From NCBI RefSeq assembly GCF_011045215.1, contig NZ_CP049201.1: 64,000 nt of DNA. The stretch is one strand, 5' to 3'. This DNA comes from Escherichia coli (GTDB taxonomy: Bacteria > Pseudomonadota > Gammaproteobacteria > Enterobacterales > Enterobacteriaceae). The notes below the pieces were generated by a model. It was not told the DNA's origin. It saw only the letters and a list, made by a program, of their open reading frames with translations, and made no database searches. Position 1 is the stretch's first letter. Each line of letters starts with the position of its first letter. The translations under genes were made by a program, and so were the position numbers. Positions 5,676-14,522 of the stretch are shown here, one piece after another.

Positions 5676-6254
5676 AATAGAAACTCATTCGAAAAGGGAA
5701 TGATGCAATGATAATTGCCACAACCTATTTTTACCATCTATAGATGGGTTTATTTACATATTATTGGTGAATGCAAGACGTTATTTTTACCAGCCATAAA
5801 CTTCTTGATTACATGGTATTAAGAAAGGATTTTACTGAGAACCAGAAGTAATATTCCTTACCATCAAAATTCATCATCTTTGCCAAAGAAAAATGTTCAG
5901 AAAATAATCCATGGAAAATTGTCCGGAGCGCTTACTATTTTAATGGATTGTTAGTCTTTGCATGAGCAAGCGGACTGATACATTTCTCTTTGTTCTCATT
6001 CAGAAAATCTCATCAGTCGCCGTTCAGACCGGTGTTGTGCTTTATGGATGCGTTACGCTCCTGATGACGTCATTTGACGTTCAACAGCATCACGGGGTCG
6101 CACGACATTTCACGTCAGTTAGTGCTATAGCTCAGGAACAAATTTTCCCGAATTGGGATATGCCCGCAAATTGCTGGTGATGTGGGGAGAATCTGGTTGA
6201 GTTCGGTAGAATTGATTTGGCGGCAGAACGCTTAAATCGTGGCGTCCTGAAACG

Positions 6255-6282
6255 AAAAACGGACCTCCGTGGAGGTCCGTTT
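6255..6282 (-). terminator. GC-rich hairpin immediately 3' of the tRNA-Phe remnant (likely pheU terminator)
   Basis: Perfect inverted repeat aaaaacGGACCTCCgtGGAGGTCCgttt; T/A runs on both sides so it could act bidirectionally. Confidence 0.6.
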
Positions 6283-6291
6283 ATATGAATT

Positions 6292-6340
6292 TGGTGCCCG
6301 GACTCGGAATCGAACCAAGGACACGGGGATTTTCAATCCC
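6292..6340 (-). repeat. pheU: 3' 49-nt fragment of tRNA-Phe (pheU-type); candidate attachment-site direct repeat at the island junction
   Basis: The reverse complement of TGGTGCCCGGACTCGGAATCGAACCAAGGACACGGGGATTTTCAATCCC equals the 3' 49 nt of E. coli tRNA-Phe including CCA. Identity stops abruptly at 6341 (the tRNA would continue CTGCTCT; the window has ATGGCAA). Not a functional tRNA. Confidence 0.8.
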
Positions 6341-6439
6341 ATGGCAATGAGCTTCTGATAATTAAGAGTTCGTCAAGTAGTTAAAAGAGTTTTTTCATGT
6401 GCATCCAGTCTCAACTTATAAATGAGAAGGATGTGCGTA

Positions 6440-7315
6440 ATGAACATTCTGCCCGTTGTGTCCACCAAAGGTGGCGAAGGAAAATCAACCCAGTCTGCTA
6501 ACCTTGCCGGTTTTCTGGCGGATGCCGGCCTCCGTACCCTGCTGATAGACGGAGACCATGCCCAGCCCACGGCAAGCAATATCTTTCCGCTGACGTATGA
6601 AGCGCCGGCCGGTCTTTTTGAATTACTGATGCGCACGGCTGACCTCAGTCATCCCGACAACATCATTTCCCGCACGGCTATCGACGGCCTTGACCTGATA
6701 GTCTCCAATGACCCCCATGAACAACTGAAAACGGCCATGCTTCATGCGCCGGATGGTCGTCTCCGTCTGCGTAATGTGCTCCAGCATCCGCTTTTCCAGA
6801 GCTATGACGTCATTGTGGTGGATTCACAGGGCGCGCGTTCCGTCATGCTGGAAATGATTGTGCTGTCTGCCACGGAGTCTGTGGTGGGGATGGTGAATCC
6901 GGTTCTGCCGGATGTGCGTGAGTTCATTCGCGGCACAGTCAATGTCATGGAAAACCTGTTGCCCTACCGTGAACTGGGTATCCCCCTGCCGAAAGTCCGC
7001 ACCCTGGTTAACTGCATGGATTATACGGCGCTGGCCAGACAAACACTGGCGGAGCTGACCGACATTATTAACTCCGGTCGCTACAGCAAAGTGCTTCCGG
7101 AAGGCGCGGTCACCCTGCTTTCAACACAGATTTATGACCTGAATATTTACAAACAGGGACACGCAGCCGGCCAGCCGGTGCACCGCCTTGAAAAAGCGTC
7201 TGCCCGTCGCAGTGATTCTGCGCTGGTCACCATGCACAGCCTGGCCTGTGAGTTGTTGCCGGAGTGGAGTGAGTTTTTTGATGTACTGCTGGAAAACGGA
7301 GGTGAAAGCCTGTGA
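6440..7315 (+). CDS. ParA/Soj-family partition ATPase
   Basis: Deviant Walker A KGGEGKST near the N-terminus (MNILPVVSTKGGEGKSTQSANLA), then LLIDGDHAQ. AAGGA RBS 9 nt before the ATG at 6440. First gene inside the island, as in soj-terminal ICEs. Confidence 0.85.
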   Translation: MNILPVVSTKGGEGKSTQSANLAGFLADAGLRTLLIDGDHAQPTASNIFPLTYEAPAGLFELLMRTADLSHPDNIISRTAIDGLDLIVSNDPHEQLKTAMLHAPDGRLRLRNVLQHPLFQSYDVIVVDSQGARSVMLEMIVLSATESVVGMVNPVLPDVREFIRGTVNVMENLLPYRELGIPLPKVRTLVNCMDYTALARQTLAELTDIINSGRYSKVLPEGAVTLLSTQIYDLNIYKQGHAAGQPVHRLEKASARRSDSALVTMHSLACELLPEWSEFFDVLLENGGESL

Positions 7316-7701
7316 ACAGAAAACTGATATGGCGTGCTGTGGCTTCAGCTTCAGTTTCCTGCCCCGGACACGATGAAGTGCATGTGTTTGTTGAGGCTGC
7401 AGATTACGAAGAAGCGAAAAAACATTTGTATGACCGTCTGGAGGAGGAATGGCAGCTTCCTGTGAGCCACATAACTTTCCACAACGTGTGGAATGAAAAC
7501 GAGCTATGTGAAATGTCTGCAGGTCCGAAGGTGCCTTCAGGCCTTCCCCTGCTTGAGTCGGGTGGGGGAAATGGTGAGGTCTTTTATGACCATAATCCGC
7601 TGCTCCTCATTGCTTCTCAGCGTCTCAGGGCTGTGATTGAAGGGGTGCTGAGTGTCCTGCCAGAGCGTGGTGAACAGGATGAGTGTGGTCGTGGAATTTA
7701 A
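7312..7701 (+). CDS. hypothetical protein (129 aa)
   Basis: ORF overlapping the parA stop (possible translational coupling). No recognisable motif. Confidence 0.4.
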   Translation: MNRKLIWRAVASASVSCPGHDEVHVFVEAADYEEAKKHLYDRLEEEWQLPVSHITFHNVWNENELCEMSAGPKVPSGLPLLESGGGNGEVFYDHNPLLLIASQRLRAVIEGVLSVLPERGEQDECGRGI

Positions 7702-7942
7702 GTCTCTGACAGGTCGCAGCCGGACAGTATGTGTCGGGTGTGGTTATTCCGGTGTTCGGTTTGGTGATGCTGCAGGCCAGGACACCCGGCAGTGGGTGAA
7801 GGTGAATCATGAGAGCGGGCTGGGGCTGTGCTCCGGCTGTGATGCCTTTCTTTTGCAGGAACGCCTGCGTCGTCAGCGGCATGACCCGCTTTTTTCATGT
7901 GGTGTTTCCGGCAAACATCGAAAAACAGAGGGGGCGATATGA
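7679..7942 (+). CDS. hypothetical small protein with two CxxC pairs (putative zinc ribbon)
   Basis: ORF with CVGC...CSGC spacing; start chosen at an internal ATG. Weak RBS, so low confidence. Confidence 0.25.
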   Translation: MSVVVEFKSLTGRSRTVCVGCGYSGVRFGDAAGQDTRQWVKVNHESGLGLCSGCDAFLLQERLRRQRHDPLFSCGVSGKHRKTEGAI

Positions 7943-8016
7943 CAGTTTTTGTAATGCATATCCCTGTCGGTACCGGGGACAGCGGACATGTGTGGTGTCC
8001 GCTGCATGCTGATGAA

Positions 8017-8445
8017 TCAGCCTTTACCCGTGAACGGGTCATCCAGCTTATCCAGACGTCTTTCTGCGTTGCGCAACACGTCCTGTGCTCCCGGGGTGGA
8101 TGCATATGCCTCCAGTTCAGCAGCAAGAGCCTGTTCCATTTCTGTTGCTGTCATGGCAGCAACATCGGCCGCAGAGCGGTTGTCGCGAATAATGAGGTAG
8201 CTGTGCAGGATATTAAGTGGTGCCACATTTTTATTGATGTTTTTCAGCCCCTGCTGAACCGCCAGCCAGTCGCCCAGCCACTGCAGGCGATACAGTTTGT
8301 GACGGTTGTAAGTTTCATTCGTTGTGTTACAGGCCATACGCCAGAACTCCTCAGACATGTTGATGAGCGTATTTTCACCTTCCGGCAGACTGAACGCAGC
8401 GAAGTCATCAATGCCGGACGGCAGTTGTTGATGATTTGTATTCAT
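8017..8445 (-). CDS. hypothetical protein (142 aa); first of three paralogous leaders MNT..QLPSGID
   Basis: AAGGA RBS 6-7 nt upstream. Its first 12 codons lie inside the repeated ~200-bp module. The overlapping plus-strand ORF 7897..8649 has no RBS and looks like an antisense artefact. Confidence 0.45.
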   Translation of the reverse strand: MNTNHQQLPSGIDDFAAFSLPEGENTLINMSEEFWRMACNTTNETYNRHKLYRLQWLGDWLAVQQGLKNINKNVAPLNILHSYLIIRDNRSAADVAAMTATEMEQALAAELEAYASTPGAQDVLRNAERRLDKLDDPFTGKG

Positions 8446-8649
8446 GTTTTTTCCTTACTAAGTCAGAGTGTTATGAATATAAAGATGCTGTCCGTACCTT
8501 CTGACCGGGGTCGCCAAACTTGCCGGTCTGAAAACGTACAGACAGTTACCGGGATTTTACTCCCGACAGCTGTACGTCCGGCACCCTTTTTTCTTTTTTT
8601 ACATAGTCCGGTTTCTGGCCCTGTGGGTCGGTATACCTGTTCCCGTTAA
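8446..8649. repeat. copy A of a ~200-bp repeated divergent-promoter module
   Basis: Near-identical to 9440-9660 and 10561-10750. Conserved core tgctgtccgtaccttctgaccgggg..ccggtctgaaaacgtacagacagttaccgggatttta.tcccgacagctgtacgtccggcaccc with internal inverted repeats (CTGTCCGTAC/GTACrGACAG; ACAGCTGT). Confidence 0.8.
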
Positions 8650-8667
8650 ATGAGAAGGAGTGGAATC

Positions 8668-9165
8668 ATGAACCGTAATCCGTCTGAAAATCTGTCTGAA
8701 AACGCGTCCCGCCAGTTCCTGTCCCTGGCCTCGCCAGCAGAGGCTGCATGCCATGCACTGCTTCGTTTCATTGAACGTGAGATTCTTGAGAAAAATGCGC
8801 CTGAAGAGCAGGTCCGGGAACGTTGCAGGGTATTCACCACACTGCTTAATGAGGGATTTACTGCCCTGTCTGATAAGGCTGGGCAGAATTTAGCTGACCT
8901 CCGGGAACAGTGCCGGCAACTGGAGCATCACATCACCAGACTTGGAGATGAATGCAACGATGTTAATCGCAGAAGCGCAGAGATTACCCGCAACATCAAT
9001 CGGGCTTTCGATATGAACATAGCGCTTGATATTGCCAGTCGGTCATATAATTCAACGCCTTCTGGCTCGTCCAGTACTCACTCCAGTAGTCCGTCAGAGC
9101 AAGAGATATCTCAGCAGGTGTCATCTGCTCAACCGTTGCCGGGAGCCAGTGATGCTGATGAATAA
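8668..9165 (+). CDS. hypothetical protein (165 aa), Ser-rich acidic C-terminus
   Basis: Strong RBS (gagaAGGAGtggaatcATG). Downstream of repeat copy A. Confidence 0.5.
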   Translation: MNRNPSENLSENASRQFLSLASPAEAACHALLRFIEREILEKNAPEEQVRERCRVFTTLLNEGFTALSDKAGQNLADLREQCRQLEHHITRLGDECNDVNRRSAEITRNINRAFDMNIALDIASRSYNSTPSGSSSTHSSSPSEQEISQQVSSAQPLPGASDADE

Positions 9166-9439
9166 GCGCAAACTTAACGGCTTCCGGAATGCTGATGAAG
9201 CCATCATCCCGGAAAAACCAGTGGCGGCTGTGAATCAGCCAGTGTCTGAGCCAGCAGAGTCGGTAGGCGAGCTTATGGTCTGCGCCGGGAAAGATTTCAG
9301 TTCCCTGGTCAAAGAAGGTTTTACAACGTTCCACATCGTCGGGGGCCATGCGTCCGGCTTTCCAGTCTTCAAAGTATTTTTCATTGCTGTCAGTGACATA
9401 AGGACAGTTGTTATCAATGCCGGACGGCAGTTGTTTTTC
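8996..9439 (-). pseudogene. paralog of the MNT..QLPSGID leader gene with ATG replaced by ATA at the conserved start
   Basis: Conserved RBS AAAGGAG is followed by ATAAATACAGAAAAACAACTGCCGTCCGGCATTGAT (INTEKQLPSGID) where copies A and C have ATG. The reading frame stays open to 8996; an internal ATG at 9349 may still give a 117-aa product. Confidence 0.3.
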
Positions 9440-9675
9440 TGTATTTATAAAAATTCTCCTTTAAAACAATCTGTTATGAGTATGCGAATGCTGTCCGTAC
9501 CTTCTGACCGGGGTTGCCAGACTTGCCGGTCTGAAAACGTACAGACAGTTACCGGGATTTTATTCCCGACAGCTGTACGTCCGGCACCCTTTTTCCTTTT
9601 TTTACACAGCCAGGTTTCCGGTTATCTGCGGGGAAGTGACGCACCTGGCGGGCTGAGAGATATGGAGGTGAAAGT
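9420..9675. repeat. copy B of the ~200-bp repeated divergent-promoter module
   Basis: Direct alignment with copies A and C (seen in sequence). Confidence 0.8.
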
Positions 9676-10413
9676 ATGTCTTCCTCAGTGAAATATTCTC
9701 CGGTTCCGGCGGTCTTAACCCGCCCTGAATCGCTGGCTGAACTGAACCTGCTGATGACCCGGATTGCCAGTGGGTGTCGTGTGGGGCTTCCGGCGTCAGG
9801 TCGTCCGGTCATTGCGGTGCACGGTGGTTATGTTTCATACAGTTCTCCACGCACCGGACATGTTTTTCAGGACGGTTTCCGCCCGGAGACAGTGATGACC
9901 GTCAGTAACCGGGAACGGATGTGTGAATGGTTCAGTCAGGTCTGGCTTCCGTTGCATCTGGCTGCCCTTGAAGGCGATGAGAACGCTTTTTTCAGTGCGG
10001 AGGTCAACATGGTGCGCCGGGAGCTGCAGCGCGTTCCGGGGGATTCAGTGAACTGCATGTGCTGGGCAAGCCTTGCTGCACTGGCATTTGATGCTGAAGA
10101 GCGGGTGGAACGGCAGAAAGGCAATAATGAGAACATCGCAACATATGATGAGAGCATCGCGACATATGCATTCCGTGCTGCCTGCACTGTGAGTCGCTGT
10201 CTGAGCCGGAATGCTTCCGGAGGTATTCCGCGCTCATACCCTGAATGGAAAGCGATTTTGTTTCCCCGTGATGGTGCTGACATTTTCCCCGACGGGTGGC
10301 TGGAAAATATGACCCGTCGGGCTGAACGTGTTTTTACGAGTGCGAAACGTCAGTGTGGAATGCTCTCAGCCAGTCAGGCAGCGCTTTTTTCTCAACGTGT
10401 TGAAACGGAGTAA
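9676..10413 (+). CDS. hypothetical protein (245 aa)
   Basis: Strong RBS (GGAGGTGaaagtATG). Downstream of repeat copy B. Confidence 0.5.
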   Translation: MSSSVKYSPVPAVLTRPESLAELNLLMTRIASGCRVGLPASGRPVIAVHGGYVSYSSPRTGHVFQDGFRPETVMTVSNRERMCEWFSQVWLPLHLAALEGDENAFFSAEVNMVRRELQRVPGDSVNCMCWASLAALAFDAEERVERQKGNNENIATYDESIATYAFRAACTVSRCLSRNASGGIPRSYPEWKAILFPRDGADIFPDGWLENMTRRAERVFTSAKRQCGMLSASQAALFSQRVETE

Positions 10414-10564
10414 AAGGATGAGCCGATTCAATACAGTTCGGGGGAAAGGGGTTACAGAGCCCGTCTTTTTCCGTCATGACCTTTCCGTTACTCAACAGCC
10501 AGAACTGCAGGGGGTATTTCACTTCAGATTCAATGCCGGACGGCAGTTGTTTTTCTGTATTCAT
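10334..10564 (-). CDS. hypothetical small protein (76 aa), third MNTEKQLPSGIE paralog
   Basis: RBS AAAGGA and conserved N-terminal codons inside repeat copy C. Its 3' end overlaps the plus-strand gene 9676..10413 by 80 bp, so one of the two calls may be wrong. Confidence 0.3.
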   Translation of the reverse strand: MNTEKQLPSGIESEVKYPLQFWLLSNGKVMTEKDGLCNPFPPNCIESAHPFTPFQHVEKKALPDWLRAFHTDVSHS

Positions 10565-10760
10565 AAATTTTTTCCTTTAAAACAACTTGTTATGAATGAA
10601 CGAATGCTGTCCGTATCTTCTGACCGGGGGCGGCAAACTCACCGGTCTGAAAACGTACGGACAGTTACCGGGATTTTATTCCCGACAACTGTACGTCCGG
10701 CACCCTTTTTCCTTTTTTCACATAGCCAGGTTTCCGGCAGTCAGAGGGGGAGGGGACACC
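10545..10760. repeat. copy C of the ~200-bp repeated divergent-promoter module
   Basis: Direct alignment with copies A and B; lies immediately upstream of the helicase gene. Confidence 0.8.
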
Positions 10761-12128
10761 ATGGCTGAAATGTCTGTTCTCTGTGCATACGAAGCAGAGC
10801 AGGCCGTTCTGGGCGGTCTGATGCTGGAGAATGAACGCTGGGATGAAGTGGTGCTGATGCTGAGTCCTGACGATTTTTATGTGGCTCCGCACCGGGTCAT
10901 TTTTCGTGCCATGTCTGAACTGGCGGTGAATGGCCAGCCTCTGGACCTGATTACACTGTCAGAACTCCTGGAACATCAGGGCAGGCTGGACGTACTGGGC
11001 GGTTTTGCTTATCTGGCAGAGCTCAGCAAGAACACACCTTCTGCGGCCAACATCATGGCCTATGCAGGCATTGTGGTGGAGAAAAGCGTTCTGCGTCAGT
11101 TACAGGCCACCGGAAACACCCTGATTGCTGATGTGGCGGCACCGAACGCCACATCACGGGACGTGCTGGATACTGCAGAGCGGCGTCTGTTTGCTCTTGC
11201 GCAGAACAGGACGCTCCGGGAGCGCACGGAAGCCTCTCTTTCATCCGCGCTCGATACCGTTCTGCAGCAACTGGAAAGTGTGCTCGGTTCCGGCGGTGTG
11301 ACCGGTACCCCCACGGGATTTGACTGTCTGGATGAAATGACCTGTGGCCTGCAGCCAGGTGACCTGGTCCTGCTGGCTGCCCGTCCGTCAATGGGGAAAA
11401 CCTCTCTGGCACTGTCCATGTGTCTCAGTGCCGCCCTGCGGCGGACGGAAGAGAGCGTTCTGGTATTCAGCATCGAGATGCCGAAGGAGCAACTGATTCT
11501 GCGCATGCTTTCCATGCTGGGACGTGTGGAACTGAATCATCTGCGCAGTGGCAACATGGATGATGAGGACTGGACGAGGGTGTCATCTGCGGTTGGCATG
11601 GCGCTGGGTGACGGAGGCATGGATGCGCTGGGTGAGCGCCTGATAATTGATGACTGCAGCCAGCAGACACCGTCATCGCTGCGTGCCAGTGCCCGCCGTT
11701 ATACCCGCCTGTACGGTAAACCCGCTCTGATTATGGTGGATTATCTGCAGCTGATTCGTGCGCCGGAGCTGGAGAACCGCACCCAGGAAATTGCTGAAAT
11801 TTCCCGTTCCCTGAAAGCGCTGGGGAAGGAGCTGGGATGTCCGGTGCTGGCCCTCTCCCAGCTTAATCGTCAGGTGGAACAGCGTGCAGATAAACGCCCC
11901 AATAACGGTGACCTGCGTGATTCCGGGGCACTGGAGCAGGATGCTGACCTGATTATGTTTATTTACCGCGACGAGGTCTATAACCCCGATTCACTGGCAA
12001 AGGGGGAGGCTGAAATTATTGTCAGCAAGCAGCGTCAGGGGCCCACAGGCACGGTGCGGGTCAGGTTCGACGGTCGTTACACACTGTTTACGCCCTCTGA
12101 AAATGACGGACAGGGAGGATATGCGTGA
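10761..12128 (+). CDS. DnaB-like replicative DNA helicase (ICE-encoded)
   Basis: DnaB N-terminal signature (MAEMSVLCAYEAEQAVLGGLMLENERWDEV...), RecA-like core with Walker A AARPSMGKTSLALS and Walker B LIMVDYLQL. GGGAGG RBS. The ORF-track start at 10596 lies inside the repeat and is unlikely. Confidence 0.85.
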   Translation: MAEMSVLCAYEAEQAVLGGLMLENERWDEVVLMLSPDDFYVAPHRVIFRAMSELAVNGQPLDLITLSELLEHQGRLDVLGGFAYLAELSKNTPSAANIMAYAGIVVEKSVLRQLQATGNTLIADVAAPNATSRDVLDTAERRLFALAQNRTLRERTEASLSSALDTVLQQLESVLGSGGVTGTPTGFDCLDEMTCGLQPGDLVLLAARPSMGKTSLALSMCLSAALRRTEESVLVFSIEMPKEQLILRMLSMLGRVELNHLRSGNMDDEDWTRVSSAVGMALGDGGMDALGERLIIDDCSQQTPSSLRASARRYTRLYGKPALIMVDYLQLIRAPELENRTQEIAEISRSLKALGKELGCPVLALSQLNRQVEQRADKRPNNGDLRDSGALEQDADLIMFIYRDEVYNPDSLAKGEAEIIVSKQRQGPTGTVRVRFDGRYTLFTPSENDGQGGYA

Positions 12129-13804
12129 TGGCACACAAACCACTGAATCTCGGGGCTGCCATTATGCAGCCCGGTCGTCAGGCCAGTGCCGCCGGTAATG
12201 TGGTGGCGCTGGGGGAAACCCCCATGATTCTGACGCTGGACCAGTTGCGTCCGAATCCGGATAACCCGCGCACCACGCGCAATCCGCGTTATGACGACAT
12301 CAAAAACTCCATTCACGCCCGCGGGCTGGATACAGTGCCCAAAGTCACCCGTATGCCGGACAGTGAGCCGGATGTGTATATCTTCAGTGACGGGGGAAAC
12401 ACCCGTTACCAGATACTGACGGAACTCTGGAAAGAAACGGGGGACCCGCGTTTTTACCGTATTCATGTGCTGTTCAAACCCTGGCCGGGACGGCTTCAGT
12501 GTGTGATTGGTCATCTGGCGGAAAATGAAGTTCGCGGTGAACTGACCTTTATTGAGAAGGCACAGGGCATTCACAAGGCAAGACAAATTCATGAGGAACA
12601 ACTCGGCAGAAAAGTTTCCCTTCGTGAACTGGCGGATTTGTTAACCCATGAAGGGTTGCCGGTACACAACTCCACGATCAGCAGAATGGAGGATGCCCTG
12701 AAATATCTGTACCCCTGGATCCCCGACCTGATGGAGTCAGGACTGGGGCGACATCAGATTACGGCACTGCTGGCACTTCGTCAGGACGCAGAGCGTGTCT
12801 GGGGACAGTTTGCGCTGACGTCCGGCACGGACGCGGAATTTGACCGCGTGTTCGGGGAAAGCTGCCGGAAGTTTAATTCGCCGGAGCTGTGGTCACTGGA
12901 GATGTTTCGGGATGAGCTGATTGGAGATTTGTTGCAGGCGCTGCCACATCCCTCCCTGGACTATGACCGGTGGCTGTTGGAGCTGGATCCGAAAGAGCGG
13001 AACCGTCGTCACCATTTTGGTGAGCCGGAACCGGTGGTGGTACCGCCGTCAGTCCGTGACAGTGGCACAGGGCAGTCCGGTGCACCGGTATCCCGTATCC
13101 GGCCGGAGGTACCGGAAATCTCTGCCCCTGATACTGAGCCCGGACAGCATGATGTTGCCCGACCGGAGAACGCTGTTTCTGACACAGGCCTCACTGAAAA
13201 ATGCGGGTTTCCTTCCCCGGAGGAGACTGCAGACAGAGCGCCTTCTTCTGCCGGGAAAGTCCGGCGTTCAGAGATGCAGCCGGATATGTACGGCGGTGAG
13301 CCGGTCTTCAGCGGTGATGCTGTGGACGCGGGGATTGCCGGGGCCGCTGTGCCATCCGTTATGACCGGCGATACAGTGCCGTCCGGAACACCTGATGTAC
13401 TTCCCGTGTCTGTGACGCATTTTGCTGAAGGACGGGATGATATCGAGCATCTGCAGAATGAGGCCTTCCGGCTGGCATGGGAACTGGCTGAATCTGCCGG
13501 CTGTGCTGAAGAAATTGCCATGGACAGAGAAAGTGACCTGTCGGCTGGTTTCGGGACTGCAGAGGAGAAATGTTCGCCGGTGACGGCATTTCTGATGGGG
13601 CTGACCGGCGATGCGCCGCTGACAGTGTCTCCCGTCAGTCTGACAGACCTGCTGACAGGCGGCAGTGCGCCGGAAGCATGGCCACTGCTGGATGATGAAC
13701 ATGCCGTGAAGCTGCTGCGTCTTCTGAGTGTGCTGCGCCGTCTGCGCGCCCTGCAGCGCAGTGTGTTACCCGAAGATGATGAGGAGGATGAAAGTGATGA
13801 GTGA
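12128..13804 (+). CDS. ParB-like nuclease-domain protein with long low-complexity C-terminus
   Basis: N-terminal ParB/Srx-like region (LDQLRPNPDNPRTTRNPRYDDIKNSI...DGGNTRYQIL). Start overlaps the helicase stop (ATGA), suggesting coupling. Confidence 0.75.
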   Translation: MAHKPLNLGAAIMQPGRQASAAGNVVALGETPMILTLDQLRPNPDNPRTTRNPRYDDIKNSIHARGLDTVPKVTRMPDSEPDVYIFSDGGNTRYQILTELWKETGDPRFYRIHVLFKPWPGRLQCVIGHLAENEVRGELTFIEKAQGIHKARQIHEEQLGRKVSLRELADLLTHEGLPVHNSTISRMEDALKYLYPWIPDLMESGLGRHQITALLALRQDAERVWGQFALTSGTDAEFDRVFGESCRKFNSPELWSLEMFRDELIGDLLQALPHPSLDYDRWLLELDPKERNRRHHFGEPEPVVVPPSVRDSGTGQSGAPVSRIRPEVPEISAPDTEPGQHDVARPENAVSDTGLTEKCGFPSPEETADRAPSSAGKVRRSEMQPDMYGGEPVFSGDAVDAGIAGAAVPSVMTGDTVPSGTPDVLPVSVTHFAEGRDDIEHLQNEAFRLAWELAESAGCAEEIAMDRESDLSAGFGTAEEKCSPVTAFLMGLTGDAPLTVSPVSLTDLLTGGSAPEAWPLLDDEHAVKLLRLLSVLRRLRALQRSVLPEDDEEDESDE

Positions 13805-14522
13805 TATGCCGCATCAGGAGCGTCTGGTCAGACGGGTCAGGAAACTGCTGGAGCTGAGTCGCAATAACAGTAATGCCCATGAGGCCGGGCTGGCGCTTGC
13901 AAGGGCGCAACAGCTGATGGCGAAACACGGTATCACGGAGCAGGATGCCGGACTTTCTTCGGTGCAGACGTCTTCATCACAGGGGGCACCTTCTGAGGCT
14001 GAAAAAGTTCCGGCGTGGATGTTTCGTCTGGTCATGGTGGTGTCACAGACATTTGGCTGCAGGGCGTATTACGACTGGCGGTTGATGCCCGGTGGCAGGT
14101 ATCGCCGGTGTGTGACGTTTTACGGTTTCAGTGAACGTCCTCAGGTGGCGGCTTATGCGTTTGATGTTCTGTGCCGCCAGTTGAGGGACGCAACGGATGC
14201 GTATCTCCGTACACAGAGCCGGCGGCTGAAACTGAGCACCCGCCGCGCCCGGGCCGCTCAGTTCCGCGATGGCTGGGTTCAGGGCGTTCGTCAGGTGGTG
14301 ATGCCATTCAGTGTGACAGAAGAGGAAAGCCGGCTGATGCGCCTCTGGCTGGAGCAGCAGGAGATGGAGACGGTGGACCCCCGGGAGGTGAAAGCCTGTC
14401 GCGGCGGTGACCAGGCCCGCTGGCAGGGGTATGAGGCCGGGAAAAATGCCTTACTGCATCATGGTGTGGGGGGAACAGCCCGCCAGATGGTGCCGGGGCT
14501 GATGATACGGGAGGCGTCATGA
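13797..14522 (+). CDS. conserved ICE protein (DUF2786-like N-terminal motif)
   Basis: GAGGAGGA RBS 8 nt upstream; overlaps the ParB-like stop. Motif KLLELSRNNSNAHEAGLALARAQQLMAKHG. Family assignment is from memory. Confidence 0.55.
   Translation: MSDMPHQERLVRRVRKLLELSRNNSNAHEAGLALARAQQLMAKHGITEQDAGLSSVQTSSSQGAPSEAEKVPAWMFRLVMVVSQTFGCRAYYDWRLMPGGRYRRCVTFYGFSERPQVAAYAFDVLCRQLRDATDAYLRTQSRRLKLSTRRARAAQFRDGWVQGVRQVVMPFSVTEEESRLMRLWLEQQEMETVDPREVKACRGGDQARWQGYEAGKNALLHHGVGGTARQMVPGLMIREAS

Follow-up and report, generated by a model that had tools for sequence, protein, structure and literature searches.

The stretch of Escherichia coli DNA analysed here, 64,000 nucleotides of contig NZ_CP049201.1 (assembly GCF_011045215.1) that we call the window, runs from cadBA-cadC into an integrative and conjugative element (ICE) of the SPI-7 type, and the subject of this report is a module of 223 nt that occurs three times between the first gene of that ICE, parA (6422-7315, plus strand), and its helicase gene, dnaB-PI (10761-12128, plus strand). 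The latter encodes the replicative helicase of SPI-7-type islands (NF040583, 690 bits against a cut-off of 655), and its stop is overlapped by the start, at 12125, of a gene for an ICE-type ParB-family protein (12125-13804, plus strand; TIGR03764) in a BisD-like position (see PMC12409273 for BisD). The element is placed in the SPI-7 type by dnaB-PI, the ICE-type ParB, a STY4528 replication protein, TraD and TraC of the PFL_4706 type, and the order parA-dnaB-parB; the ICE families matched in the window are NF040583, TIGR03764, NF040582, TIGR03754 and TIGR03744, and topoisomerase III is encoded as well. Comparison of module copies shows a core that is predicted to fold as a conserved four-way junction on the strand with the sense of dnaB, at the entry of the dnaB-parB operon and overlapping the start of an opposing gene.

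Three dispersed copies of one module

A repeat search places the copies at 8411-8633 (copy A), 9414-9636 (copy B) and 10530-10752 (copy C), each 223 nt long, with start-to-start spacings of 1003 and 1116 nt. Over this length their ungapped identity is 75-88%; in the module alignment mean column identity is 79% and a central core of ~150 nt is near-invariant. A profile search of the whole window returns the three copies at E = 1e-74 to 1e-78 and no fourth, so the number given in the initial annotation, which had described three tandem copies of a divergent-promoter module, is borne out by repeat search, alignment and profile search alike. The copies are direct repeats but not a head-to-tail tandem array: they are dispersed and bracket gene pairs. 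Copy A is flanked by the minus-strand gene F1 (8017-8445, 142 aa) and the plus-strand gene orf165 (8668-9165), copy B by F2 (8996-9448, minus strand, 150 codons) and orf245 (9676-10413, plus strand), and copy C by F3-delta (10334-10564, minus strand, 76 aa) and dnaB-PI.

As had been claimed, every copy contains a minus-strand ribosome-binding site (Shine-Dalgarno sequence AAGGA or AGGAG) and the first ~12 codons of the minus-strand gene, for MNT(NHQ/EK)QLPSGI, and each faces a different plus-strand gene with a strong, purine-rich Shine-Dalgarno sequence: AAGGAG for the gene starting at 8668, GGAGGTG for that at 9676 and GGGGGAGGGG for that at 10761. The inverted repeats quoted in the initial annotation are present too, in copy A as CTGTCCGTAC (8488-8497) with GTACAGACAG (8536-8545), plus ACAGCTGT (8566-8573). 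The conserved block extends from the 12 F codons to ~10 nt beyond a -10-like CATAG(C/T) and then splits into classes that match the downstream gene; its homology boundaries are sharp, and the left flanks differ among classes.

A four-way junction on the strand with the sense of dnaB

Read as a single strand, the 172-nt core of the module (8412-8583 in copy A) folds as a four-way junction made of a closing helix, P1, and three hairpins, H0, H1 and H2. P1 is G+C-rich and 16-17 bp long; its 5' arm, TGCCGGACGGCAGTTGT (8412-8428; 9418-9434 in copy B and 10534-10550 in copy C), is the complement of F1 codons 6-12 (QLPSGI), and its 3' arm is ACAGCTGTACGTCCGGCA (8566-8583; 9569-9586; 10685-10702). Hairpin H0 (8439-8479; 9442-9482; 10558-10598) pairs TATTCAT at 8439-8445, the complement of the F start codon, with ATGAATA at 8473-8479, and its loop contains the complement of the F Shine-Dalgarno sequence. 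In H1 (8488-8545; 9491-9548; 10607-10664) nucleotides 8488-8508 pair with 8523-8545 to give an interrupted helix of 20 bp, as two 10-bp helices, in which a C.A and a T.T mismatch are conserved. The H1 loop is conserved as well (GGTCGCCAAACTTG at 8509-8522; loop form GTCGCCAAAC), and a search of the window for a target of this loop matched only the modules themselves. H2 (8550-8565; 9553-9568; 10669-10684) is a 5-bp hairpin, CGGGA-TTTTAC-TCCCG. All coordinates of the fold are those of the plus strand.

Folded as plus-strand RNA, 8405-8606 adopts the four-way junction as its minimum-energy structure at -70.4 kcal/mol (z = -5.8, with none of 200 shuffled sequences as good), and with DNA parameters the fold is predicted at -31.5 kcal/mol (z = -4.5). 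Folds of 8440-8640 on the two strands were not significant (z = -1.4 and -1.2); this interval missed the junction because it leaves out the 5' arm of P1. RNAalifold, applied to 50 distinct copies, independently predicted the same helices, and copies from Serratia and Pantoea each fold alike when taken individually.

Support for the fold comes from compensatory change. In alignment A2, of 50 sequences, 94.1% of cells are paired and 14 of the 48 pairs are changed on both sides, compared with 6.3 in shuffled alignments, none of 500 of which reached 14; in alignment A4, of 36 sequences and adding Serratia and Pantoea, 92.8% of cells are paired and 15 of 48 pairs are doubly changed (shuffles 7.8, 0 of 500). 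The covariation score is 0.121 in A2 and 0.164 in A4, against at most 0.057 and 0.081, respectively, when the partners are slid. Many of the rows are closely related E. coli copies and it is the divergent lineages that carry most of the signal, which spans at least five genera. The arms of P1, although 137 nt apart, are paired in ~98% of cells and hold six doubly changed pairs: the first nine pairs read TGCCGGACG/CGTCCGGCA in most E. coli, TGTCGGACG/CGTCCGACA in the L005 type and GCCAGGCA/TGCCTGGC in Edwardsiella. H0 is paired on the plus strand in 100% of cells, with 45 G.T cells and no A.C. The H2 hairpin is kept across lineages that have four unrelated stems, CGGGA/TCCCG, GGGCA/TGCCC, CAGGGA/TCTCTG and CAGGG/CCCTG, one of them reached by a register shift. 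The fold is also kept where F is a remnant (L002, L005, L006 and Serratia copy 1), so the constraint on the module is not only that of F.

When a transition hits one arm of a helix, one strand is left with a G.T(U) wobble and the other with an A.C mismatch, which makes it possible to ask on which strand the fold has been selected. In A4 a plus-strand wobble is seen at 29 of 46 arm positions and a wobble on the minus strand only at 11 of 46 (Fisher p = 3e-4); in A2 the numbers of positions are 25 and 10 (p = 2e-3). P1, H0 and H2 together account for about 19 positions against 4, and H1 has no strand preference (10 against 7). The asymmetry indicates that selection acts on the fold in the strand with the sense of parA, dnaB and parB, and several of its pairs are G.U in the majority of sequences, which suits RNA better than DNA.

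These observations bear directly on the interpretation offered in the initial annotation, that of a shared operator between divergent promoters. On this view the module would act only as duplex, a bidirectional promoter with operators for a regulator of the ICE (the ParB/BisD-like protein, a DUF2857/BisC-like protein or F itself), of which the fold would be a by-product of symmetric sites. The back-to-back genes, the position of the module as a portable unit always upstream of dnaB-PI, and a conserved block whose limits befit a portable promoter cassette all agree with this, as do the weak promoter candidates on both sides described below and the indifference of H1 to strand; promoters of ICEclc, moreover, rely on BisDC and not on a consensus -35 (PMC12409273). 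The wobble asymmetry of P1, H0 and H2, however, is not expected of duplex sites, and it is our main reason to leave a pure operator reading. Nor would duplex sites be expected to conserve a hairpin such as H2 through a register shift and four unrelated stems, or to covary across the 137 nt between the arms of P1. Sites of the bisS or parS kind are compact, near-perfect palindromes of 14-23 bp (bisS is an 11-bp inverted repeat inside genes, and BisC sites are 15-bp motifs; PMC12409273, PMC7423338), and no such palindrome was found in or near the modules, whose arms lie 14-137 nt apart; the only perfect palindromes in the window with arms of at least 9 bp are at 173-198 and 6257-6282. What had been taken for operators are instead the arms of a single long-range fold that is specific to one strand and has undergone compensatory change, and we consider a function confined to the duplex unlikely. 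Because H1 lacks a strand preference, it could still double as an operator.

The junction appears not to belong to a described family. Rfam covariance models have no match in window positions 6000-14000 at E up to 1, nor in the Serratia, Pantoea, Edwardsiella and L005 loci. A riboswitch was considered and rejected, the junction strands being variable and subject to indels, as was a retron non-coding RNA, since the module is followed by dnaB and no reverse transcriptase gene adjoins it. A repeat of the miniature inverted-repeat transposable element or enterobacterial repetitive intergenic consensus type was rejected too, as the element is confined to the parA-dnaB-PI interval. At blastn sensitivity the module has no match in 72,556 plasmid records, and none was found in phage collections. 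It is thus a candidate for an undescribed structured nucleic-acid motif, without counterpart in Rfam, plasmids or phages.

Opposing genes, exchanged cargo and distribution

Within 5426 complete E. coli genomes the module is present in 138, at one to six places in each, and it was also found in Edwardsiella, Serratia and Pantoea; a pattern scan of metagenomes returned only E. coli-like copies. A search of contigs with the DnaB protein, in which matches to chromosomal dnaB dominated, recovered three ICE loci. At every locus examined the module has parA on one side and dnaB-PI on the other, and the last copy adjoins the dnaB ribosome-binding site. Minimal ICEs have a single module copy and a remnant minus-strand open reading frame (ORF) of 27-64 aa (L002, L005, L006 and Edwardsiella L008). 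In Serratia and Pantoea an F1 homologue stands back to back with dnaB-PI and the module is in between. A divergent lineage, known from the short assemblies L123 and L124 only, has an orf165-like plus-strand gene and an F2-like minus-strand gene between two copies. Both F and module are lacking from the ICEs of Salmonella, Erwinia and Cedecea and from two metagenomic relatives; in these, parA, one or two small ORFs and dnaB are read in one direction, with stops and starts that overlap or are adjacent. Since the lineages without F and module have this tight coupling, rightward transcription across the site appears to be ancestral, and since such ICEs read straight from parA into dnaB, the module and F are an accessory unit set into the operon in a subgroup of SPI-7-type ICEs.

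The arrangement has several variants. In Serratia an additional module copy lies past the 3' end of F (L129, 3940-4164; L131, 3931-4155); its fold is intact and it carries a 39-41-aa MNT.. remnant, with neither a pyrimidine tract nor a following plus-strand gene. The copy of L090 (3649-3931) is truncated: it starts at GTTATGAG and lacks H0 and the 5' arm of P1, so that the closing helix cannot form and the copy is a natural deletion variant. Upstream of F1 in the window, orf96 (7652-7942) has a conserved Cys-rich motif, CxGCG...C...CxxC, and a small ORF of the same type directly precedes dnaB-PI in module-less ICEs (L007, 2560-2800; L127, 2750-2990).

The initial annotation regarded the three minus-strand genes as paralogous. 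This stands for F1 and F2, which are 33% identical and share the motif RLxWLGxWL; F3 has only the 12 module codons in common with them. F1 and F2 belong to an uncharacterised, all-helical family of ~140 aa in Enterobacterales, and in Serratia and Pantoea the same place is taken by homologues of F1 with 52-60% identity. The AlphaFold model of F2 is all-helical (predicted local distance difference test score 66) with its first 22 residues disordered, including the 12 encoded by the module; it has no significant match in the PDB, and its AFDB matches are uncharacterised enterobacterial proteins. For F1, F2, F3, orf129, orf96, orf165 and orf300, searches of NCBIfam, PHROGs, Pfam and PADLOC turned up no convincing match. 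Residues 32-108 of F1 have a weak but concordant similarity to DUF4007 / SspB (Pfam E = 0.038; PADLOC E = 0.005).

It had also been proposed that the initial annotation would be undermined if related elements carried a single copy and no minus-strand ORF, and the minus-strand ORFs were not translated. The outcome is mixed: some relatives have a single copy with no more than the remnant ORFs of L002, L005, L006 and L008, and others keep intact genes of 131-158 aa. Indels in the coding part of the module are multiples of three and the ribosome-binding site of F is kept despite sequence change (GAGGAG in L124), features that point to translation of F at least where it is intact. Because the 5' arm of P1 is protein-coding on the opposite strand and must stay whatever gene is fused to it, unrelated proteins would come to share the same first 12 residues; that one arm of a long-range helix should code in this way is an unusual arrangement.

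The middle copy does have ATA in place of ATG, at 9448-9446, as annotated. The frame of F2 is still open over its 150 codons, and since the gene starts with ATG in L004, in L091 and in the 202 database sequences of cluster P0002, the F2 of the window is a start-codon mutant whose counterparts elsewhere are intact; a second ATA start is found in the F2 remnant of L003. AUA is a very poor translation start in E. coli. The change is C to T at plus-strand position 9446 and turns a C-G pair of H0 into U.G, a pair that leaves the fold untouched. In copy B, then, ATA would be neutral for the fold and would weaken or silence F2.

The plus-strand neighbours differ from copy to copy as well. A homologue of orf165 lies between the two module copies of L124, and orf245 corresponds to a 300-aa gene of relatives, shortened by a deletion. 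Alignment of window positions 9676-10564 with 10297-11353 of L001 places an in-frame deletion in the cassette between copies B and C, by which the plus-strand gene went from 300 to 245 aa and the minus-strand ORF F3 from 131 to 76 aa. The overlap of the two measures 80 nt in the window and 245 nt in relatives, so one or the other may be spurious.

Across loci, the genes to the left and right of the module appear in varying combinations: a left flank with F1 is joined to a right flank with orf165, orf300 or dnaB, one with F2 to orf300 or dnaB, the same flanks adjoin both length variants of the module, and remnant MNT.. ORFs lie next to intact ones. The three-copy array is most plausibly the product of gene pairs that accumulated and were exchanged through recombination in the conserved module, and in such a process pairs of one rightward and one leftward gene would be added and swapped through crossovers inside it. 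One might go further and see in the module a dedicated recombination joint, either as a conserved stretch or as a site that a recombinase uses in folded form, as with attC, for gaining and swapping cargo. The reassortment itself, the one to six copies per genome, the remnants beside intact ORFs and the sharp homology boundaries would all follow. Mosaics of this kind, however, are accounted for by ordinary homologous recombination in any conserved 200 bp, and the attC R'' and R' boxes (RYYYAAC / GTTRRRY) are absent from the module ends (ATCAATGCC ... GGCACCC), as judged by reading those ends only, an integron integrase not having been searched for. Single-copy ICEs, moreover, keep the fold under compensatory change, which argues for a function apart from cassette exchange. 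We regard a module that is mainly a recombination joint as very unlikely.

Of the remaining features of the window, the palindrome at 6257-6282, perfect with 12-bp arms (AAACGGACCTCCGTGGAGGTCCGTTT), sits in the cadC-parA interval, close to where the ICE begins on the left, and could be a bidirectional terminator, part of an attachment site or a loading site of the ParB/BisD type. ARAGORN found no tRNA gene in the window; the related ICEs L001, L004 and L087 have an annotated tRNA or tRNA-like feature directly upstream of parA. An IS21-family transposase ORF (29592-31259), overlapped by a second ORF (31033-32031), is inserted among the ICE transfer genes.

A proposed role of the fold in rightward transcripts, and its parallels

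What the fold does is suggested by its position and by what follows it. Directly after P1 comes a pyrimidine tract, CCCTTTTTTCTTTTTTTACATAG (8584-8606; 9587-9609 in copy B and 10703-10725 in copy C; plus strand), and in E. coli, Serratia copy 2 and L124 the order is P1, CCC and a T-rich tract (T6CT7 in the window) that looks like the tail of an intrinsic terminator with the whole junction as its "hairpin". In copy C the same tract is predicted to form a hairpin over 10703-10755 (plus strand), in which 10703-10715 pairs with the Shine-Dalgarno region of dnaB-PI at 10743-10755 over 13 positions. The dnaB-PI Shine-Dalgarno sequence is predicted to be paired in every lineage (window 10743-10755; L002, L004, L005, L008, L129 and L130), with partners that differ between lineages: the upstream pyrimidine tract, an upstream anti-Shine-Dalgarno sequence or the early coding region.

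The reading we favour, tentatively and at rather less than even confidence, is that the module is a cis-acting RNA within rightward transcripts that insulates or attenuates the dnaB-parB operon and is antisense to the start of F. The fold would be made as RNA, as part of rightward transcripts, and would act in cis. P1 followed by CCC-U6CU7 would stop or slow transcription arriving from upstream, and in E. coli the pyrimidine tract would pair with the Shine-Dalgarno sequence of the next rightward gene; masked in this way, dnaB and the translationally coupled ParB/BisD-like regulator would be kept low. As the folded RNA is exactly antisense to the start region of F, we propose that rightward transcription and F translation exclude each other. 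H1 may additionally serve as duplex DNA around a weak F promoter.

That promoter is one of few candidates. On either strand of 7800-11000 there are no sigma-70 promoters at 9/12 matches, compared with 2.0 expected by chance, and a scan of the Serratia, Pantoea and L005 loci for the sigma-70 consensus found none either; the back-to-back layout of the initial annotation stands, and its divergent promoters are at best weak candidates. The F1 candidate, an 8/12 match on the minus strand at 8476-8507, consists of a -35 GTCAGA (8507-8502), an 18-nt spacer and a -10 TATATT (8481-8476). Identical hexamers occur at the equivalent position in Edwardsiella L008, and copies B and C, like the L005 type, have a degraded -10; the -35 lies inside H1, and the two hexamers are in different helices. 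On the right side of P1, nothing but T-rich sequence and then CATAG(C/T) is present in E. coli, while L005 has an 8/12 candidate and Pantoea has TGCTATAAT, pointing to dnaB. To the left of P1 no conserved promoter was found, the left flanks varying by class. Promoter function at both edges of the module is possible but weakly supported.

Several of these same observations sit uneasily with a cis-acting RNA. Because so many rows are close kin within E. coli, the covariation counts overstate the number of independent events, and the wobble asymmetry would fit single-stranded DNA of the plus strand equally well. In Pantoea and L005 the dnaB mRNA may start downstream of the fold. The pyrimidine tract is absent from the L005-type lineage and from Serratia copy 1, a terminator scan reported no intrinsic terminator at the module, and P1 with its U tract is non-canonical as one, given the 3-nt spacer and a branched "loop" of 137 nt. 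The pairing of pyrimidines with the purine-rich Shine-Dalgarno sequence has no informative covariation. Finally, a terminator-like hairpin at 7875-7890 (AGCGGCATGACCCGCT), followed by TTTTT (to 7900) on the plus strand within the last 20 codons of orf96, may terminate transcription from parA ahead of F1 and copy A.

Alternatively, the plus strand of the module might do its work as folded single-stranded DNA, while the ICE replicates by rolling circle or once it has entered a new cell by conjugation. It would then be a single-strand origin, a priming site or a single-strand promoter for early expression of F, in the manner of sso, ssi or Frpo. The fold is strand-specific and is predicted with DNA parameters too, the F genes lie on the 5' side of the folded strand, which is their template, and the -35 hexamer of the weak F promoter is inside H1. 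Copies are dispersed before small, fast-changing genes, as in plasmid leading regions with several Frpo copies (PMC11541004), and single-strand origins are known in ICEs (PMC5812530). No helix, however, reconstitutes a -35/-10 pair at 9/12, and the duplex form reaches only 8/12; the ribosome-binding site and start codon of F are inside the fold and not beyond it; no plasmid sequence is similar; positions at which G.T is the majority would be odd in a DNA hairpin; and no anti-defence or SOS-inhibitor fold could be recognised in the F proteins. We hold a single-stranded DNA function, the main rival reading, to be rather unlikely. A more specific version, in which the four-way junction is a priming and promoter site on the transferred or displaced strand that switches on the F genes at cell entry, and its 5' arm is a plug-in point that gives fused genes early expression and a handle for recombination, seems to us quite improbable.

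The comparison with Frpo and ssi of F and ColIb-P9 (PMC11541004) is instructive in both directions. Shared are the dispersed, folded, strand-specific copies of ~200-300 nt in a conjugative element, each of them before small genes, and the use of the folded strand as template by the downstream genes, as for F here. The module differs in that it has no reconstituted -35/-10 with a spacing of 16-18 nt and no similarity to plasmids, and whereas Frpo is one long hairpin, the module is a four-way junction with a ribosome-binding site and the first 12 codons inside the fold. The single-strand origins of ICEBs1 and Tn916 (cited in PMC5812530) are likewise strand-specific folded DNA in rolling-circle ICEs, but those elements are Gram-positive and their sso families have motifs that bind RNA polymerase.

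Repeated hairpins before successive genes are also familiar from RNA processing. The RNase III signals of phage T7 early mRNA are similar hairpins repeated along a single transcript, and H1, with its two 10-bp helices and an asymmetric internal loop between them, is comparable; the T7 signals, however, are single hairpins of ~60 nt that have neither a long-range closing helix nor an overlap with a gene on the opposite strand.

For a cis-acting antisense RNA, the closest parallels are the countertranscript control regions of conjugative elements, prgQ/prgX of pCF10 (with Anti-Q) and FinP/traJ of F. In those systems, as would be the case here, ~200 nt at the head of a transfer or replication operon are read both ways, the opposing gene is matched at its start by a complementary structured RNA, and a U-rich, terminator-like end could set read-through into the operon. 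In the module the complementarity to the F start is set by geometry, and the H0 loop is an anti-Shine-Dalgarno sequence. The genes of prgQ/prgX and FinP/traJ face each other, whereas those of the module stand back to back and the RNA would be a closed four-way junction, and no promoter was found for a separate small RNA.

The SPI-7 / PAPI-1 / ICEclc superfamily of ICEs is a vehicle for virulence and resistance genes. ICEclc belongs to the same superfamily and has the same operon position, with parA, shi (dnaB here), the ParB-like bisD and bisC (PMC12409273, PMC7423338); transfer competence has BisD and BisC, both encoded downstream of parA, as its master activators (PMC12409273), and the operon that specifies this ParB-like clamp and its partner decides whether a cell becomes competent for transfer. 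The module is of neither the bisS nor the BisC-site type, and no such structured element is reported in those two ICEclc papers. Expression of the ICEclc operon is decisive and tightly limited, and its homologue lies directly downstream of the module here. A fold at the entry of that operon is a candidate for the missing layer that silences it in most cells.

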